The notes: generated by a model not told the origin, from the letters alone. DNA of 64,000 nt from Malacoraja senta (GCA_038087875.1 CM075988.1:7876001-7940000), one strand, 5' to 3'; positions 6,198 through 52,219 are shown, counted from the first letter of the stretch. Numbers and translations: made by a program.

Positions 6198-7114
6198 CAC
6201 TTATCTGCCTTGAAGATCGGAGAGCTTGAGCACTATTGTCTCAGGTATCTCAGTCTACACACCACCAACACCTCACCCTTCTGTCAGTTGGCTCTGAATG
6301 CTCTCATGAGGCACCACCAAACCTGAAGGAATGGAGTGTACACACGCACCTGGGTCTGTTTGATTTTACCATTGTGTACCATGTTGAAATTCTTGAGTCA
6401 GCAAGGATTTGTCAACAGGGATGATGAAGAATTATTCTCTGCTGCCTCTCCAATTAGCTAATTGCTCATTATTCATTGCAATCCTGTTTCTGATGGGCAG
6501 ATTCTGCGCACTCATCCAAGTGCACGGGCAGCAATGGTGTGTTGTGTGGATATTTGACAGGAAATGACAGTAATTGGTTTCCCATCCTGTGCTTACTCAG
6601 AAACCACGAGCTCACCATTTCCAGCAGGAATTACAAACTCAGGTGAGATTAGCAGATGACTTTTCTTTCCACCCCCCCAACGTACTGCTAATATAGATGT
6701 ATAATAAGCAGCTGATTACCTATTCATAAACCTCTCATTTCTATATCTGGGCATTTCATGGCAAAGATTAGCTGACACTTTTCCTACAGTACTGTAATGA
6801 ATTAATTGGCTGCCGTGTATATTTGGTCTAATGACTTTGAATTAGGAAAGGGGATAGATTTAACCAAAAATAAAAGAAATTATTTCCTAAATAAATGTGC
6901 ATGCTGTCACTAATTCTAGAATGATCCCACATGCTTTTATGCCATAGTCCAATATAACAGCTGCATGGAGTCATGCAGCTCAGAAACAGGCCCTTCAGGC
7001 CACTGTGTCCATGCTGGCCATCACAAGTATCGGTTTATACTAATGCCATTTACTAGCACTTGTTCTGTAGCCTTTATTGTCTTGGCAATTCAAGTGATTG
7101 TCCAGATACTTCTT

Positions 7115-7419
7115 GTGAAATTATTTTTTATTGGAGGTAGATACATATCATATTAAAATCGATACCAGTCTTACATTTTTAAATTATTAATATCGTCCAT
7201 TATTATTACAATGTCTCCAATACTTTTTTTAAATTGTTTTTAAAAACTAAATAGAACTAAAAAGATATAGATGAAATAAAGAAAGAAAGAGAAAAAAGAG
7301 AAGAAACAAGAAAAAAAAACCAAAAAAACAAAAAACAAAACAAAAAACAAAAACAAAAAAAAAAAAAAAAAAGATAATAAAGAAGAATGGAATAATTTAC
7401 GATAAAAAACTTCATTCGA
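7115..7419 (-). mobile_element. 3' UTR-only copy of the L1/Tx1-like LINE at 15262-18712, inserted in a CR1 fragment
   Basis: Reverse complement closely matches 18351-18682. Flanked by the 15-bp direct repeat GTCCAGATACTTCTT (7100-7114 and 7420-7434). Confidence 0.9.
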
Positions 7420-10023: not shown

Positions 10024-11204
10024 AGTCAAGTCAAGTCAAGTCAAGTCAAGTGAGTTTATTGTCATGTGTCCCTGGTAGGACAATGAAATTCTTGCTTTGC
10101 TTGAGCACAACAGAACATAGTAGGCATTTACTACAAGGCATTCTATAAATATATACACAATGGTCAATATACTGATAAAGTGCAAATAACAGTATTGGCT
10201 AGTAAAGTTCAGTGTTATGTCCGAGCCAGGTTTAATAGCCTGATGGCTGTGGGGAAGTAGCTATTCCTGAACCTGGTCGTTGCAGTCTTCAGGCTCCTGT
10301 ACCTTCTACCTGAAGGTAGTAGGGAGATGAGTGTGTGGCCAGGATGGTGTGGGTCCTTGATGATGCTGCCAGCCTTTTTGAGGCAGCGACTGTGGTAGAT
10401 CCCCTCGATGGAAGGGAGGTCAGAGCCGATGATGGACTGGGCAGTGTTTACTACTTTTTGTAGTCTTTTCCTCTCCAGGGCACTCAAGTTGCCGAACCAA
10501 GCCACGATGCAACCGGTCAGCATGCTCTCTACTGTGCACCTGTAGAAGTTAGAGAGAGTCCTCCTTGACAAACCGACTCTCCGTAATCTTCTCAGGAAGT
10601 AGAGGCGCTGATGTGCTTTCTTAATAATGGCATCATTGTTCTCGGACCAGGAAAGATCTTCAGAGATGTGCACGCCCAGGAATTTGAAGCTCTTGACCCT
10701 TTCAACCATCGACCCGTTGATATAAACGGGACTGTGGGTCCCCATCCTACTCCTTCCAAAGTCCACAATCAGTTCCTTGGTTTTGCTGGTGTTGAGGGCC
10801 AGGTTGTTGTGCTGGCACCATATGGACAGTTGCTCGATCTCTCTTCTATACTCTGACTCATCCCCATCAGTGATACGTCCCACAACAGTGGTGTCATCAG
10901 CGAACTTGATGATGGAGTTCGCACTATGTCCGGCTACGCAGTCATGAGTATAGAGTGAGTACAGCAGGGGGCTGAGCACGCAGCCTTGAGGTGCTCCCGT
11001 GCTAATTGTTATCGAGTCTGAAACATTTCCACCAATACGAACAGACTGTGGTCTGAGAGTGAGGAAGTCGAGGATCCAACTGCAGAGGGATGCGCAGAGA
11101 CCCAGTTCTGCGAGTTTGGTAACCAGCTTGGAGGGGATGATTGTGTTAAATGCCGAGCTGTAATCGATGAATAACAGCCTGACATATGAGTTTTTGTTGT
11201 CCAA
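10024..11204 (-). mobile_element. 5'-truncated Rex1/Babar-type LINE with open RT C-terminal half
   Basis: About 330 uninterrupted codons from LDNKNSYVRLLFIDYSSAFNTI through GAPQGCVLSPLLYSLYTHDC and KFADD to the stop at 10215. (CTTGA)n tail at 10024-10050. GGGTA on both flanks. Confidence 0.9.
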
Positions 11205-11209
11205 GGGTA

Positions 11210-11720
11210 GAAAGGAATTGTAGATGTTGGTTTGTACAAAAAATAGACACAAAGTGTTGGAGTAATTCAGTGGGTCAGGCAGCATCTCTGGAGAAAAGGG
11301 ATGGATGACATTTCGGGTGGGAACTCTACAGCCCAGAAACAGGCCATTTGGCCAATAATGTCCATGGTGAACATAATGCAAAGTTAAACTAATCTCCTCT
11401 GCCTGCACATGATCCATATCCCTCCATTCCCTAACATTCCCAAAAACCTTTAGGCAGAAGAGGCAGAAATCATTCATGGTAAAAGTTCTGTATAAACAAA
11501 GCACTGCAGATACTGGTTTACAACAAAAAGGGCTCAAAGTGCAGGAGTAACTCAGCAAGTCGAGCATCATCCCTGGAGAACATGGACAGGTGACATTCTG
11601 GGTCGGTTCCCTTCCGAGACTCCAATCTAAAGAAGGATCCCGGACCGAAATGTCACCCATCCATGTTCTCCAGGGATGCTGCCTGACCAGCTGAGTTATT
11701 CTAACACTTTGTGTCTTTTT
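11210..11720. repeat. Penelope-derived inverted repeats plus a CR1 3' fragment
   Basis: Arms as at 8505. Hammerhead-like CTAAAGAAGGATCCCGGACCGAAATGTC at about 11627-11654. Confidence 0.6.
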
Positions 11721-14947: not shown

Positions 14948-15261
14948 TGATAACTCAATGGGCCAGGTAGCATCTCTGGAGAAAACAAATAGGTGATGTT
15001 TCGGGTTGGAACCCATCTTCAGACTGAAAGTTGGGAGGAGTGGGGTGGAGTGGGGACTGGAGGTAACAAAAGGCCAGACCAGCACAGGGCTGGCAATAAA
15101 TATTCAAGGAAGGGTGAAGCCCATAATGGTCCATTGTTGGCTGGGGAAGAGGTGATTACGAAGGGAAACATGGATGTGAACAGTGGAACTGGTAGGACGA
15201 CTAGGTTCTAGGTTGGGGGGGGGGGGGGGTGAAGAGGGCCTGCAGGGGCTACTTGAAATGA

Positions 15262-18200
15262 CCCACAAATATTGAATGAAAGATCATGTCAGGAATATCT
15301 TATTAAACAGATGCAAACATTCTTCGAGGCAAATGACAACCCTGACACATCTGTCTCTCTTATTTGGGAGACATTTAAAGCGTTTGTCCGAGGCGCATTA
15401 ATTTCTGCCCAAGTATTTTATAACAAAGAGAACCGGATTAAACAACAAACACTGGAAAGGGAAATAAAGCAACTAGATATAGAAAATGCGAGAATGCCAT
15501 CTAAGTTAAAACATAACAAAATTGCTGTACTGAAATATAAACTAAACAAAATGTATTCAGAACAAGTAATAAAACTTTATCAACATACTAAACAATTACA
15601 TTTTGAGTTTGGAGACAAACCACAAAAACTATTAGCACGTCAGCTACAAAAAATGGAGGGGGAGAAAATAATTCATAAAATTAGAGCAGATACAGGAGAA
15701 TTATTAAAATTACCCAAGGATATAAACGAGAGATTTCTCCAATACTATCATAATCTTTACTCAACTAAAACTGTAGTACAACCAGAAGGAATAGCAGATT
15801 TTTTACAAAAATGTAATTTAAAAGGTTTAGATTCAAAAGATAGAGGATTATTAGAAGCGGAGATTACGATAAAAGATATTGAAGAGTCTATTGGATCTTT
15901 AAAAAATGGTAAAGCAGTAGGACCAGATGGTTTAGGCTCGGAATTCTATAAAAAAAATTATGATTTGCTTTCTCCACGTTTACAAAAGCTGTATGAACAT
16001 ATTTATACTCAACAGAAACTTCCAGATACCTTAAATGAATCTATAATAACACTTATTCCTAAAGCTGATAAGGATCCGGAAGATCCAGGATCATATAGAG
16101 CAATTGCACTTTTAAATACAGATCAGAAAATACTAACAAAAATGTTAGCGCACAGATTAAGTACAGTGATGAATAAACTAATACACCCTGACCAAACAGG
16201 TTTTATTCAGAAGCGGTATTCATATTACAATCTAAGAAGATTATTTAATATAATATATTCAAAGAGAAATATTAATGAAGATTTAGCAATAATCTCACTC
16301 GATGCTGAAAAAGCTTTTGATCAGGTGGAATGGCCCTATTTATTTTCGGTGATGGAAAAATTGCAGCTGGGCGAGAAATTTTGTGCATGGATAAAACTGT
16401 TATATACAAACCCTACGGCTAGAATATTAACAAACCAACGGTTATCATCTAAATTTAACCTATCTAGAGGGTGTAGACAAGGATGCCCGTTGTCTCCATT
16501 ATTATTTGCGCATGTTATAGAGCCACTCGCAGAAAGAGTCAGGACCCATCCGGAAATATATGGGTATAACACAAAGGACACAGTGAATAAAATTTCTTTA
16601 TACGCAGATGATGTATTAATTTACATTACAAAACCAGAAATTAGTATTCCAAATTTATTAAAGCTAATAACCCAATTTGGTTCACTCTCAGGATACAGAA
16701 TAAATTGGAATAAAAGTGAAATTATGCCAATAAGGGAACATAATAAACATATAATACAACAATTTCCATTTAAAATAGTAAATGAAAAATTTAAATACCT
16801 AGGCATTTATGTTACTAAGATATATACATCATTATTTAAAGCAAACTTTCCCCCATTACTGAATAAACTACATAAGAATATTCAGTATTGGAAAACACTT
16901 CCTATTTCAATGGTTGGCAAAATTAATGCCATAAAAATGATTTTCTTACCGCAAATATTATACCTTTTTCAAACAATTCCGATATATTTGTCAAAAACAT
17001 TTTTAAAAAGTTAGATTCCATTGTCAGTGACTTTATCTGGGATTATAAGAATCATAGGATAAGCAAAAAACATCTGTGCAAATCAAAAATAAATGGAGGT
17101 TTGGTTTTACCAAACGTTTTGTTTTATTTTTGGGCAGTTAACATTAAAAATATGAATTTTTGGTTGGAAGAAATAGATCAACAACCAGATTGGTTAAAAA
17201 TGGAAAAGGAAGATTGCTCACCTTTTGAAATCGGCTCGATACTATTTGCTACTTCTAAATTAAATTAAAAAAATTATAGGGAAAATCCTATAATATATAG
17301 TACTATGCGAATTTGGAAACAATTAAAAAAGACATTAAAACTAGATAATTTATCACTTTTTCTTCCAATTGCGAATAACCCTTTGTTTAAGCCCTCATGG
17401 TTGGACAAAGGTTTCACACAATGGAAAAACTATGGAATTAAAAAGATGGGACACCTTTATAAGGAAGGCACTTTTCTTTCATTTCAGGAGTTGCAACAGA
17501 TTTATGGACTTCAAGTAAATGATTTTTTCAGATATCTCCAACTTAGAGATTACGTAAAAGCAAATACTCGAAATTTTATAATTAGAAATTCAGAAATTTT
17601 TGACGACTGTTGGAATAAACATCCTAATACAGAAAAACTAATATCTTATATATATAATATTTTATTAGACAGCGATATCCCATTGACGGACTTACACAGA
17701 CAAACTTGGGAAAAAGAACTAAATCAAATAATAACGAAAGATACTTGGGAAGAAAGTTTACAACACATACATCAATGTTCATTAAATGCCAGACATTCTC
17801 TAATACAATTCAAAGTAATACATAGGTTACATTATTCTAAAACAAAATTAAATAAAATCTTCCCACATATCTCACCAATATGTGATAAATGTCAACATTT
17901 AGAAGCTAACTTATCTCATATGTTTGCAAATTGCATAAAAATTAAAAATTTCTGGGTAAATATTTTCACAATAATATCTAAAGTGACTAGCATTCAATTG
18001 GACCCGGATCCAAAATTGATAATACTTGGAACATTAGAACTAAATCAAACATTTACAACAACTCAAAGAAACTTTATTGATTATAGTATAATAACTGGGA
18101 AAAAAATAATTCTAAAATTTTGGAAAGGCCCTATAACCCCCACAATTAAAATGTGGATTATAGAAATGACGGAGACCTTACACTTGGAAAGAATTAGACT

Positions 18201-18712
18201 TGTCCTGTTGGACAAACAGGAACTATTCGTCGGAACATGGTCTCCCTTTATTGACTATTTAAAGGGTCAGAATGGTTCAGCACAGGAACCTGACTAACAC
18301 CCGTGCCAAGGAATAGATGAAAGGTTATACTCTGAAATGTACGAATATATCTCGAATGAAGTTTTTTATCGTAGTAAATTATTCCATTCTTCTTTATTAT
18401 CTTTTTTTTTTTTTTTTTGTTTTTTTGTTTTGTTTTGTTTTTTTTGTTTTTGTTTTTTGTTTTGTTTTAGGTTGGTTTTTTTGGGGGGTTTTTTCTTGTT
18501 TCTTCTCTTTTTTCTCTTTCTTTCTTTCTTTATTTCATCTATATCTTTTTAGTTCTATTTAGTTTTAAAAAAAAGAAAAAAGTATTGGAGACATTGTAAT
18601 AATAATGGACGATATTTGTAATTTAAAAATGTAAGACTGGTATCGATTTTAATATGATATGTATCTACCTCCAATAAAAAATATCTTAAAAAAAAAATTT
18701 TTTTTTTAAAAA
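15262..18712 (+). mobile_element. 5'-truncated L1/Tx1-like LINE (ORF2 RT and C-terminal Zn region, T-rich 3' UTR)
   Basis: ORF2 motifs GKAVGPDG, SYRAIALLNTDQK, LDAEKAFD, RQGCPLSP, YADD and CDKC...H...C. AATAAA at 18673. TSD GAAATGA at 15255-15261 and 18713-18719. Confidence 0.92.
15272..18297 (+). pseudogene. L1-like ORF2 (reverse transcriptase), frameshifted near 17005 with a further stop near 17266
   Basis: The 580-aa and 330-aa ORFs are consecutive parts of one ORF2. The endonuclease domain was lost by 5' truncation. Confidence 0.88.
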
Positions 18713-23286: not shown

Positions 23287-24045
23287 CCCTTGGTGGACTC
23301 CTTGTCTTAACTAGTCCAGACGCCTTACAGGAACAGTATTGCTGTCGATTTGAGGCTTTCTCAAGATCGAACATAAAGTTAAAGACGAGTATGTATTCGG
23401 CGCGCAAAAAGGTGGAACAGGAACGCACGATCGCCATGCAACAAGCAGTGCTATAGCGGGGCAGCGCAGCTCACAGAATAAGCCTAGCCAGCAGAGCATC
23501 AACTGTGTTTGCTTACCTTAAACGCTTTCCAGTGCCGTGCAGCCCACGGCCAAGTCAAGCAACCGAGAGCCAGCGCCGGTGATAACGCAAGGACACATCG
23601 GTAAGCGGTGCAGCCCGGGAAGCCAGCAAAGCCAGCCCGTGACGCCAGCCCGAGAGGTCACCGATGCACCGGAGTCCAGAGACAGTCAAGTCGGTCCGGT
23701 GAATTCATCGCAGCAAGAGCTGGACTTTACGAATTGAGTGTATTGATCAGTGATGAACAATAATTTAGAGGATATATGTGTGCACTGCATGTATATGGCT
23801 TGAAATATATTAGTATATTATTATATTAGTATATTATTAATACTAGTATATTGGTATAAATCGATTATTATATTAGTATATTATTATATTGATATATTAG
23901 TATAAATTGATTAGTATAAGAGAATTATTGGTAGTGAATTTACTTGATAATTGCTCAGTTATTTTGGTAAAGGAATTAAGTCCATTGCAGAGAACATTGT
24001 GTAAGAGGACGGCACGTTGTGTAACTCAGTAGCAACAGTGTAACC

Positions 24046-25084
24046 ATGGCCAATCTAATCGTTGGGAATATGCCCCAGTTAGAAACTGGTTATACTTTTG
24101 AGGAATGGACCGAAGTCTTAGAGGTTTGGTTCACTTCAAATGATATCACTACAGAAGAGAAGCAAAGAGCATTGTTCCTTACAGGTTTAGGAAGCAAGGG
24201 TTATCACACCTTAAGGGTGTTGCTGCAGCCAGCTAAGCCCGCTAGTAAAACGTACATGGAATGTAAGGAGGCTTTAATTGCTCATTTCTCGCCAAAACCA
24301 ACAGAAATAGTGCAAAGATACTGATTCTATACATGCACACAAGCAAATGAAACAATCCCTCAGTTCCTATCAAAGCTTCGGCAATTAAGTGATGGGTGTA
24401 ATTTTAAAGAACTGGAGAATATGCTAAGAGATAGATTGGTGGTAGGATGTGCAGACGTTAACATCCAGCAAAAACAGTTGGGTACACCAAAATTAACCTT
24501 TGAGAACGCAGTCAATATTGCGACAGCGATGGAGGTTACCAAGCAAGATGTAGAGCAGATCAAGAAGATCGGAAGCCTCAAGATGATTTTACCTCCGTCC
24601 ATCAGCATCAAAGGAAGGCGTCTGGACTAAAGAAGACAAGGAGTCCACCAAGGGCATCCAAACACAAGGTCCAATACTCCAAGAAGTGCTGGAGATGTGG
24701 CGGCAGCCATGAGCCAGCAACGTGTACATTTAGAGATGATAGGTGCTTCAGGTGCTCGGGAACGGGTCACACCAAATGCCAGTGTGATGCTGTTAGAGCT
24801 TACCAGCAGAGGAGGGGACAATCCCAGAAAAAAGCAAACCACTTGGAGGAGACTGATTCGAATTCATCAGAGGGAACCATGAGCCACTTGGAAGATGAAT
24901 CGATCAACAAGTTGACGAACTCTGAACCGTATGCAGCCACTTTGATAGTGAACGGCAGGGAGGTACAACTAGAAGTTGACACTGGAAGTCCATGGACTAA
25001 CGTACCGGGAGAAGTCTTCTGAAAACTCGGTCAGGACCCCAGACTAGATCCCTGTAGCCTCAAGCTGAAATCCTACATGGGCGA
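24046..25084 (+). pseudogene. Gypsy gag (two Cys/His knuckles) and protease N-terminus
   Basis: FEEWTEVLEVWF..., MLRDRLVVGC, CWRCGGSHEPATC...CFRCSGTGH and LEVDTGS, with several stops and frameshifts. Confidence 0.85.
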
Positions 25085-25599
25085 TGTGAGAAAGGGGTTA
25101 ATAGGTATAAGTTGATTTAGACAAGAACCCTTTGTATAGTAGGGAGTATAGTAGGGAGGATAGGGGGAGTAAAGGACAAATACAAATGGTGACTTTTCAA
25201 GGATGAGAACAGAGAAGATAAGGAGACCATCCATTCTGGAATTAGGGTAAGGGTCATGAGAAACACTCTGTGCGCTTGCGTAATGAGATAAATGAATATT
25301 GCAAACACACCCATCATGACAAGATGTCTCATTTAAATGTACATGCGATGTATGATGTGGGAGGCACCAGGGGCGGTACCTGTAGAATGTGCACCTCAGT
25401 GCTCTGATTTGACAAGAGCCCGAAGGGGAGGAATAAATGTAACAAATGTAAAATGATGTGAATAAGAGAGAGATGAATTCCATCTCTCGGTGTGTCTTGA
25501 CAGGGGAGACACCCAACTCTGCAGACTTGCTAATAAATAAACTTGTTTCTCTACATTCTCTACGCATCGTGAGTGTTCTTTCACAACTTGCGCCTGACA
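25085..25599 (+). repeat. ERV 5' LTR
   Basis: Only two differences from the 3' LTR spotted by eye. AATAAA at about 25532-25541. Confidence 0.95.
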
Positions 25600-25602
25600 G
25601 CT

Positions 25603-25622
25603 TGGGGGCTCGTCCTCGGGAT
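25603..25622 (+). promoter_or_regulatory. tRNA-Pro primer-binding site with a 2-nt insertion
   Basis: TGGGGGCTCGTCC-TC-GGGAT versus the canonical PBS-Pro TGGGGGCTCGTCCGGGAT. Confidence 0.85.
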
Positions 25623-26009
25623 CCCCACTCCGGCCAGCTGGCGACAGTATACGGAAGAAGGGACGGTGCACCCCGTTGATTTCAACGGTCCCAGACCCCT
25701 AGATTGTCGTCAGCGGTTTGAGCGAGTGATATCCAGGACCAGAGATTAGAGAAACAAGTGGGAGTTCCGATCCGGAGGAAGATCGGGGGGAAATTCGCGA
25801 AGGAGCCAAATCGAGTGATTCTTGTGCACAAGACCCGGGTAAGAAAACTGACAATTAAGTACTACTCGGGCGATTAAATAAGACCTTGTGGATACCGCCC
25901 TGAAGAATTCAGGGGTCTGTACGGGCAAGGCAGAAAAGGCGGGAAAATAGATCTGGGGTAAACAGATCGGGGGTAAACAGATCGGGGGGGGGAAATTCCG
26001 ATCGGGAGG

Positions 26010-27750
26010 ATGGGCAATGAAAACGGAAAGCCCACCAGGGAGGGGAAGGGCGGTAAGCCCGACCCCAGCATTCTGCCTGATAGTCCGTTGGGGCGAATGC
26101 TGAGCCTCTGGGGGCAGAGAAATACCCAGGGAATTGGAGGACAAAAATGATTGAGCCTCTGGAGGCAGAGAAATACCCAGGGAATTGGAAGACAAAAATG
26201 ATTTGATTCTGTTATATTGAGTTTTAATACATGTAAAAGATGTTGCATTTATTGAAGTAAGAATGGAACGAATGTGATTTGTGTGCAAAAACCGGTTTGG
26301 AATGAAAGAGGAAGTTTATATATGTGATAATTATTTTGTTTATTGTATTTGTAGACCACATTGTAAGAGTAAGTAAGTAAGTTTTATTAAAATCAAAAAT
26401 GTTCACTGTAGGTAGGTGTATGTTCCTTTAAATAAATCAGGTCATGGTGAAAGGCGCCGAACAGCTGTAAGATAACGGTTAATGTTTGTATCCTCGTAAG
26501 AAGGGGAAGTTGTAAAACCAGCTTTTGGTTATTCTGATGTTCTTTTAGATTTCTAGTCAGTAAAGATAATTTGGAAAATTGTTACTAGTGCTAGGAATTG
26601 GACATTTAAAATAGTGGTGAATATGGATTGAAATAATTGGAAATAAGTTAATTGGTAAACATTCAAGTTTAGAAAGAAAGGAGAGAGAGGCAGTTAGAAG
26701 ATAACAGAAGTAGAAAAACGACAGGCGTGAAAGTAATAAAGCAGGAGGAGTCAGTGGAAGATTTTTGCAAGGAGGCTAGAATATTTGAGAAGCAAGAAAT
26801 TGAGTTTAGAATTAGAAAGAAGGCATACCAGAAAGGATTAAAGTTGGAAGCATTGGGATAAAGTGATGAGACTGCTTTAAAGAGAAAAGAGAAGGACAGA
26901 CACGGATTATCCCTTGGGGCACCCATAAACTGAAAGGGCTAAAAAATACCTCACCCTATATCCCTGATAGGGGAGGAAATTGATTAGGGCTTTGGAGGAG
27001 GAGAACGTGGGACTATTATTGATCATGGAAGATTTGAAGGCACTGTTGGTAAAAGTGATAGGAACCACTAAAGTGACAGAACTGAAGATGGATGGTATAA
27101 ACTGATACGAACAATGTAACAAGCAATGGCATACTGTTTGACACAGTCAGGCAGAGGGTATGGCAGACCCTCAGACAATGTTACCCACTTAAGAGGAACC
27201 CCAAGGAACAAGGGGAGATACAGAAGGAAAGGCAAATAGCCTATCTGGAAAACCAGCTGAAAAGGTGGAGAGTTGATTGATGAACATTATATTATGAACA
27301 GGCAGAGGGCATGGCAGGCCCTCAGACAATGTAATCCAGCAGCCTATCTGGAAAACCAGCTGAAAAGGTGGAGAGTTGATTGATGAACATTATATTATGA
27401 ACTACTGTGGTGGATGTCATTCTTCTTAAAGTCAAGCAGATTCAGCGAACAGTTGGTCTCTGTGGTCGAGAAATATCGCAAAGATAGGAAAAAGACTTGC
27501 AAACCAGCAGGAGGAGTTGTTGTCAATAAACAATGGACCTAAGTGAGTCCTATGACGGAACCAAGCAGGGCCAGAGAATTACATGCCAATAATGAATGTC
27601 TTTGGGGTACGTTTCCTCAAAAAGTCCTATCAGGAGTGAAATTAATCTGGATATAAGCCCTAACAGGACTGGGGTCCCCAAGAGAGAAAGGGATTTAAAG
27701 GAGGATTTGTTGATATTGTTCCATAAGTAACAAGCGATGTAAGAGAGAGA
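26010..27750 (+). pseudogene. ERV gag remnants
   Basis: MGNENGKP...ILPDSPLGRMLSLWG is a myristoylation-type, class I matrix-like start. A degraded IPWG...IRALEEENVGLLL..DLKALL segment follows at about 26900-27090. Many stops. Confidence 0.65.
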
Positions 27751-27859
27751 GAGAGAGATTTAAAAAAAAAATACTTCAGAATGTAGGACAGAGTATGATA
27801 ACCTCGGGAAAAGGCAGGATATAGTTCAGACTAGATTAGGTATAAGCCCTGTAGTGTCG

Positions 27860-28170
27860 TTTATGATGAATAAGGTAATTAAGAGGTTTGGTAGACCTAC
27901 AGAAATCAGCTTTGACAACGGATTGTTTTTATTTAGAGTGTAGCTAAGTTGGCGATAGAGACCCTTAGAGTAAAATACACATTTGGGTATGTAACACCTG
28001 CAGTCACAGGCATGGTGGAAAGAATAAATGGAACATTGAAGGTTAATATAAATAAGATTTGTTTAATATACAAGTCTATTTATGAACAGGAAAAGTAAAA
28101 GCTGTTGGAGGTGGACCAGGAGGAAGGACCCTTTAAACCTGAAGACAAGGTGTATGTATAAGTTTTCTAA
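27860..28170 (+). pseudogene. Degraded retroviral-type integrase remnant (first of two)
   Basis: VIKRFGRPTEISFDNG...QSQGMVERINGTLK...KSIYEQEK...GPFKPEDKVYV, read across frameshifts. Confidence 0.7.
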
Positions 28171-28329
28171 ACTACCGACCGATGTTCAGGTAGAAGGTTG
28201 ATATACCTGGTACCAATTCAATAATTACATGAGGGCTGTCCCGCATGTACGAATAGATAATAGCCCTGAGGTAAGTGAACAGGAGGACAAGAGATGTGAG
28301 AAAAGAGTAGAGTTTGAACAAGAACGTTG

Positions 28330-29272
28330 TTTGACATCAGTGGTGGGCAAAATAATGGAAAGCATACTTAAGACAATATATAAGAATAGGGTAGGATTAG
28401 GAAGAATTAGCATGGATTTGTGATTGTGATGTTTGACTAATCTTGAATTTTTTTAAAAGGTTATTAGGGAAATTGATGAGGGTAAAGTGATGGATGTTGA
28501 CTAGATGAACTTCAGTAAGGCCTTTGACAAGGTTCAATAAGGAAATAAGGTTGGTTAAGAAGGGTTAGTAAGGAATAGCAAGATGGATTAAAAAGTGGCT
28601 GTATGGGAGATGTCAGAGAGCAATGGTGGATGGATGTTTGTCAGGTTGGAGGTCAGTGACTAGAAGGGTACCTCGGGGATGTGTGTTGGGTCCACTGTTG
28701 TTTGTCATGTGAATCAATAATCTGGATGTTGGTGTGGTAAAATAGATTAATAAGTATGTAGATGATACTAAGATAGGTGGTGTTGTGAATAATGTAGATT
28801 TTAAAAAGTGTACAGAGAGATTTAGGTCATTTGGAAGAATGGGTTGAAACATGACAGATGGGTTTAATGTTGATAAGTATGAGATGATACATCTTGGCAG
28901 GACAAATCAAAATTGAATGTACATGGTAAATGATTGTGAATTGAGGAATGAAGTTGAATAGAGGGATCTAGGAATAACTGTGCATGGTTCCCTGAAGGTG
29001 GAATTTCATGAAGATAGGATGGTAAAGAAAGATTTTGGTGTGTTGGCCTTTATAAATCAGAGCATTGTGTATAGAAGTTGGGTTGTAATGTTAAATTGTA
29101 CAAGGTATTGGTGAGGTCAATTGTGGAGTATGGTGTATAATTTTGGTAGGCATAATTATAGGAAAAGGTCAACAAAATAGAGAGAGTACAGAGGAGATCA
29201 ATTAGAATGTTGACTGGGTTTCAGCAACTAAGACACAGAGAAAGGTTGAACAAGTTAGGTCTTTATTATTTA
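28330..29272 (+). repeat. CR1 LINE RT fragment captured inside the ERV, strongly C-depleted
   Basis: LTSVVGKIMESIL, FSKAFDK, VTRRVPRGCVLGPLLFV, KYVDDTKIGG, ERVQRR. No CR1 3' UTR or tail seen. Confidence 0.85.
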
Positions 29273-29289
29273 GGAACGATAGAAGGGGT

Positions 29290-29666
29290 CCCAACAAATA
29301 CAAGGGAATGATGTATTCCTAAGGAACTATTTACTGGCAGTATCTCGTTCTATTACAGAATTAAGAACCAAGGGGCTGCTGGCACAGAGTCCCCATCTCG
29401 ACTTTCCAATCCATTCTGTGAAAGCGGGGGACTGGGATCTTGTAACATCATGGAAGGAAGAAAAGCTGCAACCTAAGTGGACTGGACCCTACCTGGTGTT
29501 ACTAATCACCGAGACAGCAGTACGAACAAAAGAAAAAGGGTGGACACACGCAAGCCGATTTAAGGGTCCTGTGGAGGCCCCACCAAACAATATCAGCCCG
29601 TGGACTGTGCGCAAAGGAGAGGAACCATTGACTTTAATATTTAACAAGAACCCGCGGGAAAAATGA
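29290..29666 (+). pseudogene. Class I retroviral integrase C-terminus (GPY/F region), frame open
   Basis: FLRNYLLAVSRSITELRTKGLLAQSPHLDFPIHSVKAGDWDLVTSWKEEKLQPKWTGPYLVLLITETAVRTKEKGWTHASRFK. Confidence 0.85.
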
Positions 29667-30811
29667 AGATTTCGTGTTGGTGGGTCGTGTGTTGGGTGGT
29701 TACCCAACTATGTAAGCATACAGAGTGTTCAAATGCAGGAAAGTGGAAGGATGTGCAGATAGAACAGGGAGAATGAGCCTAAGGATTTGAAGATAATGAT
29801 AGTAGCAGGAGAAACAGAATTAAGGCAATTATATGAGATGGGAATACCTACAGGAGGGAAGGGAGCCAACACCTGGCTTGCCTGGATGATGTACACGGCC
29901 AGGAGTATGCAACACACCAATTGCTACGCCTGCGCCGGAGCTAAGCCTCAGCTGGTTCCAGAACCATTTCCCTTGAATTGGGATAGGACACCTGGGGCTA
30001 TGTCATGTATACTACAGCTATTCACGAATCCCATCCTACCAAAGGATGCGACCTGCCAGAGTTATCATTACCTATTCCCGGCTAGCAACAACAATACAAA
30101 GGGCCGAAGGACAGACACTTCAACACACACATATATATAGATGCGATAGGGGTGCCAAGAGGGGTACCCGATGAATTCAAAGCCAGAAACCAGATAGCTG
30201 CGGGCTTTGAGTCCATACTCTTCTGGTGGTCCACACTTAATACAAATGTGGACTGGATCAACTACCTATACTACAATCAACAACGCTTTATAAATTACAC
30301 TCGAGATGCGGTTGAAGGATTAGCGGAACAACTGACAGATACCAGCCTAATGGCCTGGCAAAATCGCATGGCCTTAGACATGCTACTGGCTGAGAAGGGA
30401 GGGGTGTGTGTAATGTTTGGGGAACAATGTTGCACCTTCATCCCCAACAACACTGCTCCTGATGGGTCAGTATCGAGAGCCCTAGCAGGTCTCACCTCCC
30501 TGTCTATCGAATTGGCCGAGAACTCCGGAGTAGACACCTCCTGGACCGGGTTTCTAGACTCCTGGTTTGGGAAATGGAAGCACATCTTTACCTCAGCCCT
30601 AACATCAGTGGTAGTTATGATGGGGTTGCTGTGCATATTTGGATGTTGTATCATTCCCTGCGTACGGGGGTTGTCTCAGCGATTGATAGAGACAGCCCTG
30701 ACCAAGAATGACGCCGCCATGATGGCCTTTAAAACACAGTATGACCAGCGAGAGGAAGATAAAGAGGCGAAGATTCTGCTGCTAGCATTAGAGAAGGGGC
30801 AGATAGTCTAA
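29663..30811 (+). pseudogene. env: Gamma-type env: signal peptide, partial SU (CYAC) and intact TM; internally deleted and frameshifted
   Basis: MKISCWWVVCWVV signal peptide and SU CxxC motif CYAC. TM reads YIDAIGVPRGVPDEFKARNQIAAGFES..., with ISD WQNRMALDMLLAEKGGVC, CX6CC (CVMFGEQCC), a hydrophobic anchor and tail. No furin RxKR site seen. Confidence 0.9.
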
Positions 30812-30847
30812 ATCAAAGATTGCAGTAGCAAAAGTAAAAGTGTGGAT

Positions 30848-31362
30848 TGTGAGAAAGGGGTTAATAGGTATAAGTTGATTTAGACAAGAACCCTTTGTAT
30901 AGTAGGGAGTATAGTAGGGAGGATAGGGGGAGTAAAGGACAAGTACAAATGGTGACTTTTCAAGGATGAGAACAGAGAAGATAAGGAGACCATCCATTCT
31001 GGAATTAGGGTAAGGGTCATGAGAAACACTCTGTGCGCTTGCGTAATGAGATAAATGAATATTGCAAACACACCCATCATGACAAGATGTCTCATTTAAA
31101 TGTACATGCGATGTATGATGTGGGAGGCACCAGGGGCGGTACCTGTAGAATGTGCACCTCAGTGCTCTGATTTGACAAGAGCCCGAAGGGGAGGAATAAA
31201 TGTAACAAATGTAAAATTATGTGAATAAGAGAGAGATGAATTCCATCTCTCGGTGTGTCTTGACAGGGGAGACACCCAACTCTGCAGACTTGCTAATAAA
31301 TAAACTTGTTTCTCTACATTCTCTACGCATCGTGAGTGTTCTTTCACAACTTGCGCCTGACA
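30848..31362 (+). repeat. ERV 3' LTR
   Basis: Near-identical to 25085-25599. Preceded by the purine-rich AAAAGTAAAAGTGTGGAT. Confidence 0.95.
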
Positions 31363-31367
31363 GGCGA

Positions 31368-34108
31368 GAAGGTTGACATTTACGGACAAGCAGCGGTACA
31401 GGTACAGCTCGAACCTCACAGGAAGCCAGAAACGCTGACCCTAGTGGTAGTAAAGAAAGGTGCATGCCTAATGGGAAAAGACTCGTTGAGGAAGTACCCT
31501 GGATTGCTGTCAAATCTAGCCAGCTAGAACACACTAGACCCAAGCCTAAGTACATCGAGTAGTATACAGTTTGCAAGAGGCCATGAGCTCAGTACTCAAC
31601 AAGCACGCCAAGCTGTTTGATAACAGCACCCATGAAGGGATACCAAGCCAAAGGGTATCCACAAGACGAAAACAGTGGAGCAAAGTTTTACAAAGCAGCT
31701 CCTGTTTCATATGCTGCTAGAAAGCTGATTGATGCCGCATTGGATGACGTGCTGCAGGATGGCATTATCAAGCCGGTGAAGACAGCAGATTTCACATGCC
31801 CGATCATAGCTGTTACAAAACCAAATGGGAGCATGAGTCTGTGGCAATTACAAGCTCACAGCAAATAAGGTGCTGAAAGTGGAACAGTATCCACTTCCCA
31901 CTTTGGAGGATCTCCTGCAGGAAATCTCCAGAGGAGAAAAGTTCTCTAAATTAGTCCTCTCACATGCCAATTATCAGATAGAGTTAGGCCATGAAGCTCG
32001 GAAGTTCACCACAATAAATACGCACAAGAGTCTCTTCGAGTATACCAGGTTACCCTTTGGGATATCCAGCGCAACAGCCACGTTCCAGAGAACAATGGAG
32101 AGCCTACTAGCGGATATTCCCATGTGCAAGCTGTATATCTGGATGATATCATCATCAGCGGGAAGACTGACGAAGCGGTCCTGTCAAGACTAGAAACCAG
32201 TGGGTTACGTCTGAAGAAGGAGAAGTGTGCACTGATGCAAGAGTCAGTCGACTATCTCGGATATTGACTGAACAAGATTGGTCTTCGTCCTCTTCCAGAC
32301 AAAGTTGATGCGGTGCGGGAAGCAAAGCGGCCTGTGAATCAAAGCCAACTCCAGGCATACCTCGGCTTACTTGGGTATTACAGGATGTTTATACCTAACC
32401 TGTCACAGGAGATTGCACCGTTGACTCTAATGCTGAAGGATGAGTACAGATCAGCAGATTCAAAGAGTGGGAGAAGCAGCGAGCCTGATCCCATGTTCAA
32501 ATGGGGAAAGGAGCAAGAGCAGGCATTCCAGAGATCCAAGCGTCTCCTGCAGAATGATAGTGTTCTGACGCATTACGATCCAGCGAAAACAATTCTGCTT
32601 CAAACTGATGCAAGCCCCTATGGCTTAGGTGCTGTGATAAGCCATGTTGAATCAGATGGACAAGAATACCCAATAGCGTTTGCCTCACGCACTCTCAAGC
32701 CCAGCGAAGTGAACTACGCACAATATGAAAAGGAGGGTTTATCCATAATCTTCAGACTGAAGAAGTTCCACAAGTAGTTACATGGGAGGTCTTTCACCAT
32801 TGTGACTGATCACAAGCCTCTGATGGGATTATTGGGAGACCACAAGCCTGCCAGCCCAATGGCCTTTGCTCGCATAGCAAGATGGCATATGATCCTGTCT
32901 GCCTACAGTTATAAGATTGTCCATCGAGAAGGCAAGAAACACCAGAATGCAGATGCGTTGTCGCACTTGTCGATCCACGAAGAGGACTCTTCATGGAATC
33001 ACCCTGAGCTCGCGGAGCTTGATGAAGCACCAGAGGCACGCATCAACATGCTCACCGATCTGGAAACATGCCCTGTTGATGCACAGGAAGTGAAGAGAGC
33101 TACCAAATCCATCCATGGGAGTTTCCTGAGAGACCGTGGAGTAGGATTCACTGTGATTATGCCAGCCTTGATGAGGAGAATTTGCTGATTGTGGTCGATG
33201 CTCACAGCAAATGGATTGAAGCCATTCGGGTGAAACACGCAAAAGCAGCGGCAACAGTGATTGCCCTGGGACCGTTGTTTGCATCTCATGGGTTACCGGG
33301 AATGCTGGTCACATATAATGGTACGCAGTTTGTGTCTGAAAAATTTGCCAGGTTCCTCAGGAGCAACAACATCTGCCACATTCAAACATCACCCAAACAC
33401 CCGCCCAGCAACGGACTAGCTGAAAGAGGTCTACAAATGGTGAAAGCAGGTGTGAAGAAAGGAAAAGGATCCAACCTGGAAATAAAGATCCAGAAGTTCT
33501 TGCTGACTTACCGAGTCACACCTCAAGGAACGACTGGAAAGTCACTCTGTGAACTGATGTTCAGACGAAAGATCCGCACTAAACTTAACAGTCTGCGACC
33601 CAATCTAAGCCAATCTGTCCGAAGGAAGCAAGCTTCAATGAAACAGGCAGCAGATCGAGATAGCAAGGAATGAGTCTTTGAGGTGAATGATCATGTCATG
33701 GTCAAGAACTTCACATCAGGTCCTACTTGGCTTTACGGAATGATAGCAGAAGTCATCAGTGAAGTCATGTACAACGTAAAGTTGAGTGAGGTAAGAGTCG
33801 TGCGTCGTCATGTAGATCAAATGAGAGCATACTTGCCTAAAGGTGATGAGCACACCGAGTTCCAGCAAAGAGAAGTGGTTCAACCAAGCGAGGAGCCAAT
33901 GATGGTTCTGCCTACTCCACCCGCATTGGATCCTGAAAGAACTTCAGAGAGTGAGTCCACAGTGATAACACAACATCACCACCAGAGCCTGATATCTCAG
34001 ATAACATGCAAAGTCCAACAGACTTTGTCTAATAGGATGTCTAATCGCATGTCTAATAGGACTAAAAGAACACCTAAAAGATTTGAGGATTTTGTTCTTT
34101 ATAAGTGA
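31368..34108 (+). pseudogene. Gypsy pol remainder (protease C-terminus, RT, RNase H, integrase, GPY-like end)
   Basis: YPLPTLEDL, FTTINTHK..FEYTRLPFGISSA, (Y)LDDII, LQTDASPYGLGAVISH, TDHKPL, LIVVDAHSKWIE, NGLAER. Multiple frameshifts; the integrase Zn-finger appears deleted near 33110. Confidence 0.9.
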
Positions 34109-34560: not shown

Positions 34561-35391
34561 CAAGTACAGCTCCTGAAGGACCGTGTTGGGGAACTGGAGA
34601 AGCAAGTGGATGACCTCAGGTTTGTCCGAGAAACGGAGTCGTTCCTCGACAAGTCCTACAGTAAGATTGTTACACCTAAAGTACTGGAAGAGAGAAGGTG
34701 GGAGACAGTGAGAAAGTGAGGGAAGCATGGAATGCAAACGTCCCCGGGTGTTGTACCTCTTGTGAACAGGTTCACCCACTTAGAAGCTGTCGGGACAGAA
34801 GACGTATTGACACTGAGCGGCAGACTGGCTTGCGATGCGAATAGGGCTGTTGAGCCAAAACCAAAAAGGCCAAAGTCAGGCAACGCCATTGTAGTGGGAG
34901 ACTCCATTGTGAGAGGTACGGACAGGGGTTTCTGCGGCAACAGACGGGATTCGAGGATGGTGTGCTGCCTTCCTGGTGCCAGGATCCAGGATGTCACGGA
35001 CAGATTGCAGAAAATCCTCAAGGGCGAAGGTGAACAGCCGGAAGTGGTAGTGCATGTCGGCACAAACGATGTCGGAAAGAAGGGGATGAATATTCTGCAG
35101 CGTGACTTTAGAGAGCTCGGAAAAATGCTGAAAAGCAGGACCTCCAGGGTTGTTATCTCCAGTTTGCTTCCAGTTCCTCGTGCTGGCGAGAGCAGGAACA
35201 GGGAGATACGGGACCTGAATGTGTGGCTGAGGAACTGGTGCACGGGGCAGGGATTTAGATTCTTAGATCACCGGGATCTGTTTTGGAGTAAAAGGGAACT
35301 GTACAAAAGGGACGGATTGCATCTTAACAGGTGGGGGACCAGCATTCTGGCAGGCAGGTTTGCCACTGCTACACGGGTGGTTTTAAACTGA
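34561..35391 (+). pseudogene. CR1 ORF1: coiled coil plus SGNH/GDSL esterase
   Basis: QLLKDRVGELEKQVDDL..., VVGDSIVRG, VHVGTND, DGLHLN. One in-frame TGA at about 34717. Confidence 0.88.
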
Positions 35392-35617: not shown

Positions 35618-38411
35618 TTGTGTCTCAATGCAAGGAGCATTCGTAATAAGGTGGATGAGTTGAATGTGCAGATAGCTATTAATGACTATGATATAGTTGG
35701 GATCACGGAGACATGGCTCCAGGGTAACCAAGGCTGGGAGCTGAACATCGAGGGATATTCAATATTCAGGATAGACAGAAAGGGAAAGGAGGTGGGGTTG
35801 CGTTGCTGTTTAGAGAGCAGATTAACGCAATAGAAAGGAAGGACATTAGCTTGGAGGATGTGGAATCGATATGGGTAGAGCTGCGAAACACTAAGGGGCA
35901 GAAAACACTAGTGGGAGTTGTGTACAGGCCACCTAACAGTAGTAGTGGAGTTGGGGATGGCATCAAACAGGAAATTAGAAATGCGTGCAACAAAGGTAAA
36001 ACAGTTATAATGGGTGACTTCAATCTGCATATAGATTGGGTGAATCAAATTGGCAAGGGTGCTGAGGAAGAGGATTTCTTGGAATGTATGCGGGAAAGTT
36101 TTCTAAACCAACATGTAGAGGAACCAACGAGAGAGCAGGCTATTCTGGATTGGGTATTGAGTAATGAGGAAGGGTTAGTTAGCAGTCTTGTTGTGCGTGG
36201 CCCCTTGGGCAAGTGTGACCATAATATGGTTGAGTTCTTCATTAGGATGGAGAGTGACATTGTTAATTCAGAAACAAGGGTCCTGAACTTAAAGAAACGT
36301 AACTTTGAGGGTATGAGAAGTGAATTGGCCAAGATAGACTGGCAATTGATTCATAATGGGTTGACGGTAGATATGCAATGGAAGGCATTTAAAGACTGCA
36401 TGGATGAACTACAACAATTGTTCATCCCAGTTTGGCAAAAAAATAAATCAGGGAAGGTAGTGCATCCATGGATAACAAGGGAAATCAGGGATAGTATCAA
36501 AACAAAAGATGAAGCGTACAAATTAGCGAGAAAAAGCAGCCTACCAGAGGACTGGGAGAAATTCAGAGTCCAGCAGAGGAGGACAAAGGGCTTAATTAGG
36601 AAAGGGAAAATAGATTATGAAAGAAAACTGGCAGGGAACATAAAAACTGACTGCAAAAGCTTTTATAGATATGTGAAGAGAAAAAGATTAGTTAAAACAA
36701 ATGTAAGTCCCTTGCAGTCAGAAACAGGTGAATTGATCATGGGGAACAAGGACATGGCAGACCAATTGAATAACTACTTTGGTTCTGTCTTCACTAAGGA
36801 AGACATAAATAATCTGCCGGAAATAGCAGGGGACCGGGGGTCAAATGAGATGGAGGAACTGAGTGAAATCCAGGTTAGCCGGGAAGTGGTGTTAGGTAAA
36901 TTGAATGGATTAAAGGCCGATAAATCCCCAGGGCCAGATAGGCTGCATCCCAGAGTACTTAAGGAAGTAGCCCCAGAAATAGTGGATGCATTAGTGATAA
37001 TTTTTCAAAACTCTTTAGATTCTGGAGTAGTTCCTGAGGATTGGAGGGTAGCAAACGTAACCCCACTTTTTAAAAAGGGAGGGAGAGAGAAAACGGGGAA
37101 TTACAGACCAGTTAGTCTAACGTCGGTAGTGGGGAAACTGCTAGAATCAGTTATTAAAGATGGGATAGCAGCACATTTGGAAAGTGGTGAAATCATTGGA
37201 CAAAGTCGGCATGGATTTATGAAAGGTAAATCATGTCTGACGAATCTTATAGAATTTTTCGAGGATGTAACTAGTAGAGTGGATAAGGGAAAACCAGTGG
37301 ATGTGTTATATCTGGACTTTCAGAAGGCTTTCGAAAAGGTCCCACATAAGAGTTTGTATACAAACTTAAAGCACACGGTATTGATGGTTCAGTATTGATG
37401 TGGATAGAGAACTGGCTGGCAGACAGGAAGCAAAGAGTAGGAGTATACGGGTCCTTTTCACAATGGCAGGCAGTGACTAGTGGGGTACCGCAAGACTCAG
37501 TGCTGGGACCCCAGCTATTTACGATTTATATTAATGATTTGGACGAGGGAATTGAATGCAACATCTCCAAGTTTGCGGATGACACGAAGCTGGGGGGCAG
37601 TATTAGCTGTGAGGAGGATGCTCGGAGGCGGCAAGGTGACTTGGATAGGCTGGGTGAGTGGGCAAATGCATGGCAGATGCAGTATAATGTGGATAAATGT
37701 GAGGTTATCCACTTTGGTGGCAAAAGCAGGAAAGTAGACTATTATCTGAATGGTGGCCGATTAGGAAAAGGGGAGATGCAACGAGACCTGGGTGTCATGG
37801 TACGCCAGTCATTAAAAGTAGGCATGCAGGTGCAGCAGGCAGTGAAGAAGGCGAATGGTATGTTAGCATTCATAGCAAAAGGATTTGAGTATAGGAGCAG
37901 GGAGGTTCTACTGCAGTTGTACAGGGTCTTGGTGAGACCACACCTGGAGTATTGCGTACAGTTTTGGTCTCCTAATCTGAGGAAAGACATTCTTGCCATA
38001 GAGGGAGTACAGAGAAGGTTCACCAGACTGATTCCTGGGATGTCAGGACTTTCATATGAAGAAAGACTGGATAGACTCGGTTTGTACTCGCTAGAATTTA
38101 GAAGATTGAGGGGGGATCTTATAGAAACGTACAAAATTCTTAAGGGGTTGGACAGGCTAGATGCAGGAAGATTGTTCCCGATGTTGGGGAAGTCCAGAAC
38201 AAGGGGTCACAGTTTAAGGATAAGGGGGAAATCTTTTAAGACCGAGATGAGGAAAACATTTTTCACACAGAGAGTGGTGAATCTCTGGAATTCTCTGCCA
38301 CAGAAGGTAGTTGAGGCCAGTTCATTGGCTATATTTAAGAGGGAGTTAGATGTGGCCCTTGTGGCTAAAGGGATCAGGGGGCATGGAGAGAAAGCAGGTA
38401 CAGGATACTGA
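35618..38411 (+). pseudogene. CR1 ORF2: APE endonuclease plus reverse transcriptase, two frameshifts (about 35780 and 37350)
   Basis: CLNARSI, GITETWL, VYRPP, MGDFN, CDHN, NYRPVSLTS, LDFQKAF, SGVPQ, KFADD...GEKAGTGY*. Confidence 0.92.
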
Positions 38412-51412: not shown

Positions 51413-52106
51413 GCCTATTTCCTTCGCTCCATAGATGCTGCCTCACCCGCTGAGTTTCTCCAGCATTTTTTTCTACCTTCGATTTTCCAGCATCTCCAGT
51501 TCCTTCTTAAACAACATAATCAAGGACTGCTCACTCTCACACCCATGTCGTTCTCTCTCTTCTCCCCTCTCCCCTCTCCCCTCTCCCATAAAGCCTGAAA
51601 GCATGCACCAACAGATTCAAGAACAGCTTCTTCCCACTGATATTAAACTCTTAAACAGACCTCTCATAAGCTAACAATGAATTCCTGATCTCCCAATCTA
51701 CCTTGTGCGGTCCCTGCACTTTTTCTATGTGCACGTCACCTGTGACTGTAAGACTACTTTCTGCATACTGTTTACTTTTCTCTCTGGCATTACCTTGATG
51801 TACTCATGAATGGCATGATATATCTGGAACTTTTCACCATATCTCAGTACCTGTGACAAAAATAAATCAATAATAATAACAATAATAGTAAGATTAAACG
51901 AGAACTTACCAGTTTGAAGTTTGATCTTGATTTTATGAGGAGTTACGATGAGCGATTACGTGAAGAAGGCCGTCCAGGCGCATGCGCGTCATTCTTTGAA
52001 GCAGCGGTCTGAAATCACAGATAAGAGAATTGACCTGAGGATAGTAAGATTTTGAAGAACTGGAACTACCAGATGACCTTGATAATATGAGGGTGGGACC
52101 GGTGGG

Positions 52107-52219
52107 CACGTAATCGCTCATCGTAACTCCTCATAAAATCAAGATCAAACTTCAAACTGGTAAGTTCTCGTTTAATCTTACTATTTTACTTCTGAGTCAC
52201 GTGAGTGACTACGTGAAGA
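52107..52219. repeat. DIRS internal complementary region (ICR)
   Basis: 52107-52185 is the exact reverse complement of 51884-51962 (79 bp). 52183-52219 is the reverse complement of 56558-56594 with one mismatch. Confidence 0.93.

Follow-up and report, generated by a model that had tools for sequence, protein, structure and literature searches.

Strand-specific cytosine loss in a captured LINE fragment carried by a non-autonomous class I endogenous retrovirus of Malacoraja senta

Introduction

Sense-strand cytosine loss is best described for the lentiviruses. In HIV-1 and its relatives, C in the sense strand is the most mutable base, C-to-U changes outnumber C-to-A and C-to-A outnumber C-to-G, and C-to-A is far more frequent than G-to-U (PMC3594280; review PMC3511177). 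The rates tabulated for unpaired regions of HIV-1 are 1.007 for C-to-U, 0.575 for C-to-A, 0.195 for C-to-G and 0.084 for G-to-U, with C-to-A about seven times G-to-U (PMC3594280, Table 3). Low dCTP leads to G-to-A changes with HIV reverse transcriptase (PMC3511177), and a single-cycle HIV study was unable to resolve transversions (PMC4496919). Coding genomes confound mutation with selection in retroviral base composition; a passenger LINE fragment is a natural neutral reporter.

Several other systems show base- or strand-specific mutation. Endogenous retroviruses (ERVs) edited by APOBEC proteins are LTR elements with a strand-biased mutation load, in the form of sense-strand G-to-A clusters, with C-to-T tenfold rarer and used as the negative control (PMC4866542). 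In MMTV, AID-dependent C-to-T changes occur on both strands (PMC7760323). APOBEC1 is reported from tetrapods and lungfish, APOBEC3 from eutherians and APOBEC2 from sharks (PMC5889660). LINEs are dominated by C-to-T and G-to-A, with a strand bias that is left unexplained (PMC9099904), and in yeast, damage to single-stranded DNA causes base- and strand-specific hypermutation with no editing enzyme, spontaneous mutations falling mostly at G and being mainly G-to-T (PMC3799438).

Here we analyse an ERV in a window of 64,000 nucleotides of repeat-rich DNA of Malacoraja senta (GCA_038087875.1 CM075988.1:7876001-7940000; coordinates count from its first nucleotide). We take the element to resemble VL30, ETn and MaLR, in having intact LTRs, a primer site, a target duplication and a decayed or replaced interior, and in being mobilised in trans; the literature searched for this comparison yielded no captured LINE piece with a strand-specific loss of C. 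Searches of titles and abstract openings, with subscription journals largely outside their scope, likewise returned no non-autonomous ERV of a cartilaginous fish described as having lost C from the sense strand.

A young ERV with a decayed core and a captured CR1 piece

The ERV is bounded by LTRs of 515 nt (25085-25599 and 30848-31362) that differ at 2 of 515 sites, have TG...CA ends and are flanked by a 5-nt target-site duplication (25080-25084 and 31363-31367), as in other class I ERVs; all internal features lie on the plus strand. It interrupts the pol region of another decayed LTR retrotransposon, presumably of Gypsy type (24040-25084 and 31363-33900, integrase at 33080-33670), which is C-normal at 21-22%. 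Downstream of the 5′ LTR are a primer-binding-site-like stretch (25603-25622), which we take to be of tRNA-Pro type, and a leader with the start of what we presume from familiar motifs to be gag (25600-26127, ATG at 26010; 22% C), a region with no Pfam match. The leader proper (25600-26010) carries 27 CpG, an observed/expected ratio of 0.95, beside a core with strong CpG loss, which suggests a young or protected segment.

The core opens with a tandem duplication of about 51 nt (26100-26203) at its 5′ edge, which may mark another template switch; in one run a joint skips 26133-26314. A first C-poor tract of decayed gag-like sequence follows (26128-26896), and since homology searches found neither its parent nor gag homologs, its substitutions are unpolarised. 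The middle of the core (26897-28266) holds a further decayed gag-like relic, a second internal duplication (27148-27402) and a relic of an integrase core (about 27830-28200). Next comes a captured piece of CR1 LINE ORF2, from the reverse transcriptase (RT) region, in sense orientation and with loose ends at 28329 and 29271; its 943 nt contain a single CpG and are 18 indel steps away from the nearest CR1 protein, with 73% amino acid identity. Beyond the CR1-integrase recombination junction (29262-29290) lie an MLV-type integrase C-terminus (29272-29666; PF18697, E 1e-8) and a gamma-type env (29663-30811; TM match to PF00429, E 8e-11), which matches syncytin and MLV p15 and is broken into three ORF pieces, with a stop near 29776 and a frame change near 30100-30140.

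Neither a retroviral RT nor a long ORF nor a functional gag-pol was found within the ERV, yet contigs of its family number in the thousands and cover all 30 bins in three of four runs, which identifies a non-autonomous, multi-copy family; siblings with the same CR1-integrase junction are among these related copies. The element is thus a young, non-autonomous, multi-copy class I (gamma/epsilon-like) ERV. Relatives of two of its parts are named from Leucoraja erinacea. Neither ten ORFs of the window nor the env piece matched any entry of the protein collection exactly, and the viral contigs searched contained nothing related to env or to the helper pol described below. A search with the integrase relic gave two matches that were set aside, one a 37-aa ORF of a sibling and the other an unrelated repeat protein.

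Cytosine is scarce in parts of the core and at the start of the LTR

A sequence-only reading of this DNA had proposed that the interior is depleted of C on the sense strand, and its counts per 60 nt are exact: 1 at 28441-28500, 1 at 28741-28800 and 3 at 26581-26640, against 10 at 37561-37620 in a free CR1. The depletion is real, with 11.0% C and 26.5% G over 26200-29275, and 7.3% C and 28.7% G in the CR1 piece (28329-29271); outside the element the minimum on either strand is 13.8% in windows of 3076 nt and 12.0% in windows of 943 nt. It is not uniform, as change-point analysis divides the sequence into segments of 22.0% (25600-26127), 8.2% (26128-26896), 15.5% (26897-28266), 7.2% (28267-29289) and 21.7% C (29290-30847). 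Nor is it confined to the interior, as had been claimed, since the U3 start of the LTR (25085-25204, and again 30848-30967) is C-poor like the core, with 8 C in 120 nt. The boundary placed near 29275 is sharp, with the change point at 29290 where C rises from 7.2% to 21.7%, and the integrase end and env are C-normal as described (21.9% and 21.8%).

An assembly or base-calling artefact is ruled out, because low-depth sibling contigs from run X3 hold the same C-poor piece with 2 differences in 270 nt.

The parent was itself poor in cytosine

The free CR1 at 37561, although its 10 C were counted correctly, is a distant comparator with 56% nucleotide identity to the captured piece. A closer CR1 subfamily is represented by the proteins P0052 (73% amino acid identity) and P0001 (70%). 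For the C content of the parent, amino acids combined with local codon usage give an estimate of 14.1%, and run X3 gives 10.3%; the latter value assigns all 84 differences to a 621-nt span, only 65 of them coming from the two free-CR1-like contigs. Four-fold sites of the free CR1 are 9-13% C. With a parent at 10-14% C, part of the C-poverty is inherited. The sequence-only reading had named an equally C-poor parental subfamily as a threat to its case; the parent proves to be C-poor, but not equally so.

Further CR1 loci were too distant and were left unused: 31 in metagenome contigs, 30 of them at 28-57% amino acid identity in the best segment and one a short match at 76%, and one locus in genome contigs at 42%. 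Among near-intact non-LTR elements of the window, four-fold sites are 9-13% C in those at 35728-38411 and 15257-18297, and 33% C in that at 10215-11720; avoidance of sense-strand C may be common to several retroelement lineages of this host. ORF1 of the free CR1 (34720-35391) encodes a GDSL-like esterase/OSK domain. P0003, a CR1 RT protein near the fish-type CR1 copies of the window, is deposited under Proteus mirabilis, probably through contamination with host DNA.

Cytosine loss is strand-specific and mixed in outcome

Substitutions in the CR1 piece were counted at codon positions determined by residues on which P0052 and P0001 agree; the spectrum comes from one 943-nt piece with 18 C-loss events, its parents being reconstructed from proteins. 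C was lost at 18 of 47 sites, G at 14 of 152, A at 7 of 142 and T at 7 of 115 (C versus G, p 1.2e-5), which agrees with the earlier claim of a strand-specific loss opposite in polarity to APOBEC3 G-to-A editing. The excess is robust to wider indel masks and to conservation across four proteins (12 of 29 C versus 11 of 102 G), and a DNA-level estimate from run X3 agrees (25 of 64 versus 29 of 206, p 5e-5). It extends beyond CpG, as had also been stated: where CpG is impossible, 14 of 38 C were lost versus 11 of 99 G (p 0.001), which rules out CpG decay alone. Clustered sense-strand G-to-A dominance of the APOBEC3 type is not seen in the CR1 piece, where G loss is no higher than in the controls below; 12 of the 14 lost G became A.

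The 18 lost C became T in 11 cases, A in 5 and G in 2. Taken over all sites, C-to-T exceeds G-to-A (11/47 versus 12/153, p 0.007); outside CpG the two do not differ significantly (7/38 versus 11/99, p 0.27), and there the asymmetry lies in the transversions, with C-to-A or C-to-G at 7 of 38 sites and G-to-T or G-to-C at none of 99 (p 8e-5). A table of substitution types by strand, suggested by the sequence-only reading, is asymmetric for C changes as a class but not significantly so for non-CpG transitions. As in lentiviruses, C is the most mutable base and sense C-to-A far exceeds G-to-T.

Four free decayed CR1 pieces, scored against a different proxy parent (P0003), served as controls. Their losses of C versus G were 7/43 versus 18/162, 0/15 versus 4/55, 2/11 versus 4/41 and 4/10 versus 5/31; the last leans the same way as the ERV (p 0.18), and pooled they give 13/79 versus 31/289 (p 0.17). 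C loss in the ERV exceeds that in the controls (p 0.0096), G loss does not (p 0.74), and C transversions, at 7/47 versus 5/79, are not significantly more frequent (p 0.13).

Assembled contigs of 4 of 24 runs were also compared, with 40 of 402 difference rows covered individually. The run-level counts carry no polarity and pool siblings with free CR1. A/C differences outnumber G/T differences in each of the runs X1, X4 and X5 (35:16, 43:27 and 52:27), with p 0.002-0.03 if forward and back rates are equal and 0.07-0.3 in the most lenient symmetric case. The C/T versus G/A ratios of the same runs (0.64-0.75) fall inside the range allowed by strand symmetry or at its limit. These ratios, the 10-14% C of the parent and the 9-13% at four-fold sites of the free CR1 are compatible with a mostly inherited composition that then decayed symmetrically in the usual way, the apparent effect being enlarged by low counts and by parents that are not exact. 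We regard that account as highly improbable, because the per-base test is independent of parental composition (p 1e-5, and 0.001 without CpG), the DNA-level estimate from run X3 agrees, and a symmetric model has the worst AIC of all those fitted (378).

Adding extra C-to-T to the symmetric model lowers the AIC to 371, extra C-to-A lowers it to 369, a scaled HIV-1 matrix also gives 369, and a symmetric model in which all changes of C are raised 5.1-fold gives 360. The best fit (353) is an HIV-1 matrix with its C row freed, at a factor of 3.8; the C excess of the ERV is thus 3.8 times stronger than that matrix gives. All three classes of C change are raised about 4-5-fold, and their split (11:5:2) matches the HIV-1 unpaired-region rates (1.007:0.575:0.195).

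The sequence-only reading had offered C-to-U deamination by an AID/APOBEC-family enzyme as one cause; here the sense strand would have been hit in a single episode or a small number of them, and uracil excision and abasic bypass would have yielded the transversions. C-to-T is the largest class (11 of 18), an episode would account for a 3′ module free of the bias (see below), AID-dependent proviral C-to-T is described in MMTV (PMC7760323), and the C that remain are somewhat under-represented after WR (0.78-0.84 of the expected number). However, there is no significant hotspot, WRC sites being lost at 10 of 20 versus 8 of 27 for other C (p 0.23; contexts were scored by eye and power is low), non-CpG C-to-T does not significantly exceed G-to-A, and C-to-A is more numerous than C-to-G. 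Editing in MMTV is on both strands, and APOBEC1 and APOBEC3 are given for tetrapods and lungfish and for eutherians respectively, neither for chondrichthyans, in the part of PMC5889660 considered. With 7 of 18 losses being transversions, and extra C-to-T fitting less well than a rise in all C changes (371 versus 360), deamination as the main cause is quite unlikely; RT bias, which the same reading had offered as an option, fits best among the causes it named. The strand-specific loss of C is genuine, smaller than first thought, and includes more transversions than would be expected from a deaminase.

Selection for loss of C from the non-autonomous RNA, whether through reduced pairing, a lower number of CpG, improved packaging or avoidance of silencing, and with C retained at signals, fits the spectrum well, in that a filter accepting any loss of C predicts one factor for the three classes. 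Selection has also been argued for HIV (PMC3594280) and for transposable element composition (PMC9099904). It requires many separate small advantages, and folding z-scores in 17 windows show no pattern and do not part the C-poor core from the C-normal integrase end (+1.1 at 29200, +1.3 at 29500); we consider it very unlikely.

The added 3′ module is free of the bias

Beyond its 3′ end the CR1 piece gives way to integrase-end sequence with 85-88% amino acid identity to that of an autonomous skate ERV. This is the class I ERV of Leucoraja erinacea represented by the P0009 cluster of several 882-aa pol proteins, which was probably both donor of the 3′ module and helper. The present element differs from it in having no RT or RNase H of that ERV, and in carrying the captured CR1 piece and a far more divergent integrase-core relic. 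At just 25% identity to the helper pol, that relic may come from a different donor or a far older one; an alignment of the two, in which C changed at 36 of 47 sites and G at 33 of 60 (p 0.026), was discarded as too distant. The same junction is present in seven sibling proteins from the assembled runs (P0010 and P0061-P0066), in five of which the greater part of env is deleted. The junction coincides with the composition boundary and is shared by siblings, in keeping with the earlier suggestion that the 3′ module was acquired later; the alternative offered with it, that the module is constrained, is weak as a coding argument, as env is broken and the integrase end has radical shared changes.

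The added integrase end lost C at only 2 of 46 sites, significantly fewer (p 8e-5) than the 18 of 47 lost from the CR1 piece, while non-C divergence is the same in both (11/178 versus 29/412, p 0.86). In the integrase end of a sibling, C changed at 1 of 39 sites and G at 8 of 56. The two internal duplications show no C bias either, their copies differing by two G/A changes (26100-26203) and by four mixed changes in 40 nt (27148-27402). The bias is therefore not evident in the recent history of the family as recorded in the added module and the duplications, which is the main unexplained result. With equal non-C divergence but almost no C loss in the integrase end, it is not a steady feature of the family's present cycle, and a replication bias acting on all unconstrained parts in proportion to the number of rounds is not what the integrase end of this copy (2/46) and of a sibling (1/39) record. 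The P0010 cluster (siblings of 29130-29640), to which that 1 of 39 belongs, shows mainly G-to-A changes in the integrase end, at 7 of 56 G; a different branch of the family thus has the polarity of classical editing.

A module without the bias would be accounted for if the core had sat in a heavily transcribed master locus during its decay, with C damaged on the non-template sense strand, and had later been remobilised by recombination with a young helper that supplied the ends. Genomic decay is also suited to the CpG observed/expected ratio of the CR1 piece (0.05) and its 18 indel steps; the leader, integrase end and env are all C-normal, and a duplication lies at the 5′ edge of the core. Oxidative stress does mutate single-stranded DNA mainly at C, but in the yeast data cited mainly to T (PMC3799438), while the significant asymmetry here is in C-to-A and C-to-G, and the resident CR1 copies of the window, which may not be transcribed, are near symmetric. 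We consider this history unlikely, if less so than deamination.

A proposed bias in serial reverse transcription

The LTRs differ at only two sites, so the core did not decay at this locus. We infer that the bias arose in the retroviral cycle and mostly predates the junction, and the explanation we favour, with middling confidence, is strand-biased error that built up as an unconstrained passenger core was reverse transcribed many times over, for the most part prior to the gain of the 3′ module. The core (gag and integrase relics with the captured CR1 piece) would have been carried as a passenger through many rounds of helper-driven transcription and reverse transcription. The retroviral cycle treats the two strands unequally, and sense C would have been about 4-5 times more mutable than the other bases, changing to T more than to A and to A more than to G; acting on a CR1 piece already at 10-14% C, this could have brought it to 7%. 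Template switching may then have joined the core to a new integrase-end/env module from the autonomous skate ERV, leaving the sharp boundary. An earlier helper was perhaps active while the bias operated, with the divergent integrase relic as its remnant. The low CpG ratio and many indels also fit long genomic residence, which weighs against this replication-based explanation.

Candidate chemistries include deamination of C in RNA for C-to-T, damage to minus-strand G or misinsertion by RT for C-to-A and C-to-G, and misinsertion under skewed dNTP pools. The G-to-T changes of yeast single-stranded DNA would, on a minus-strand intermediate, read as sense C-to-A (PMC3799438), although that system is a chromosomal reporter rather than a retroelement and its response to oxidative stress is mainly C-to-T.

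Relative to the HIV-1 values cited from PMC3594280 and PMC3511177, the loss here has gone further, to 7-8% C versus 11.9% in HIV unpaired regions and 13.7% in the lowest lentivirus genome listed. G-to-A per base is about a third of C-to-T, where in HIV the two are equal; both A and T increase; and what is affected is non-coding sequence that a class I ERV carries as a passenger. From APOBEC-edited ERVs (PMC4866542) the element differs in that the loss is of C, mixed in outcome and without a significant motif. We regard the element as a variant of the known retroviral composition bias.

A more far-reaching possibility, rather doubtful at present, is a sense-strand C-specific mutator that raised C-to-T, C-to-A and C-to-G about fivefold, stronger than in HIV and with no APOBEC motif. 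It would have come from an earlier helper or a skate-specific lesion pathway, and ended when a second helper supplied new ends; the CR1 piece would then be a neutral, time-stamped reporter of an undescribed retroviral process in cartilaginous fish. If the cause is ordinary bias of the reverse transcription cycle, the element is a clear example of it and no new mechanism. In either case, C- and strand-specific loss with many transversions is recorded in a multi-copy ERV whose LINE fragment has its free parent family in the same genome, in a lineage with no reported APOBEC1 or APOBEC3. Set against the later-added module, the core allows timing and cause to be tested in skate genomes that are already available, and sense-strand C loss, a negative control in screens for ERV editing, can be a genuine signal.

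Other repeats of the window

Two further structures were noted outside the ERV. A perfect 79-nt inverted repeat with 144 nt between its arms (51884-52185) is probably a small non-autonomous DNA transposon. An AT-rich inverted pair of 275 nt at 81% identity (7110-7384 and 18421-18695) adjoins the 3′ end of the A-rich non-LTR element at 15257-18297.
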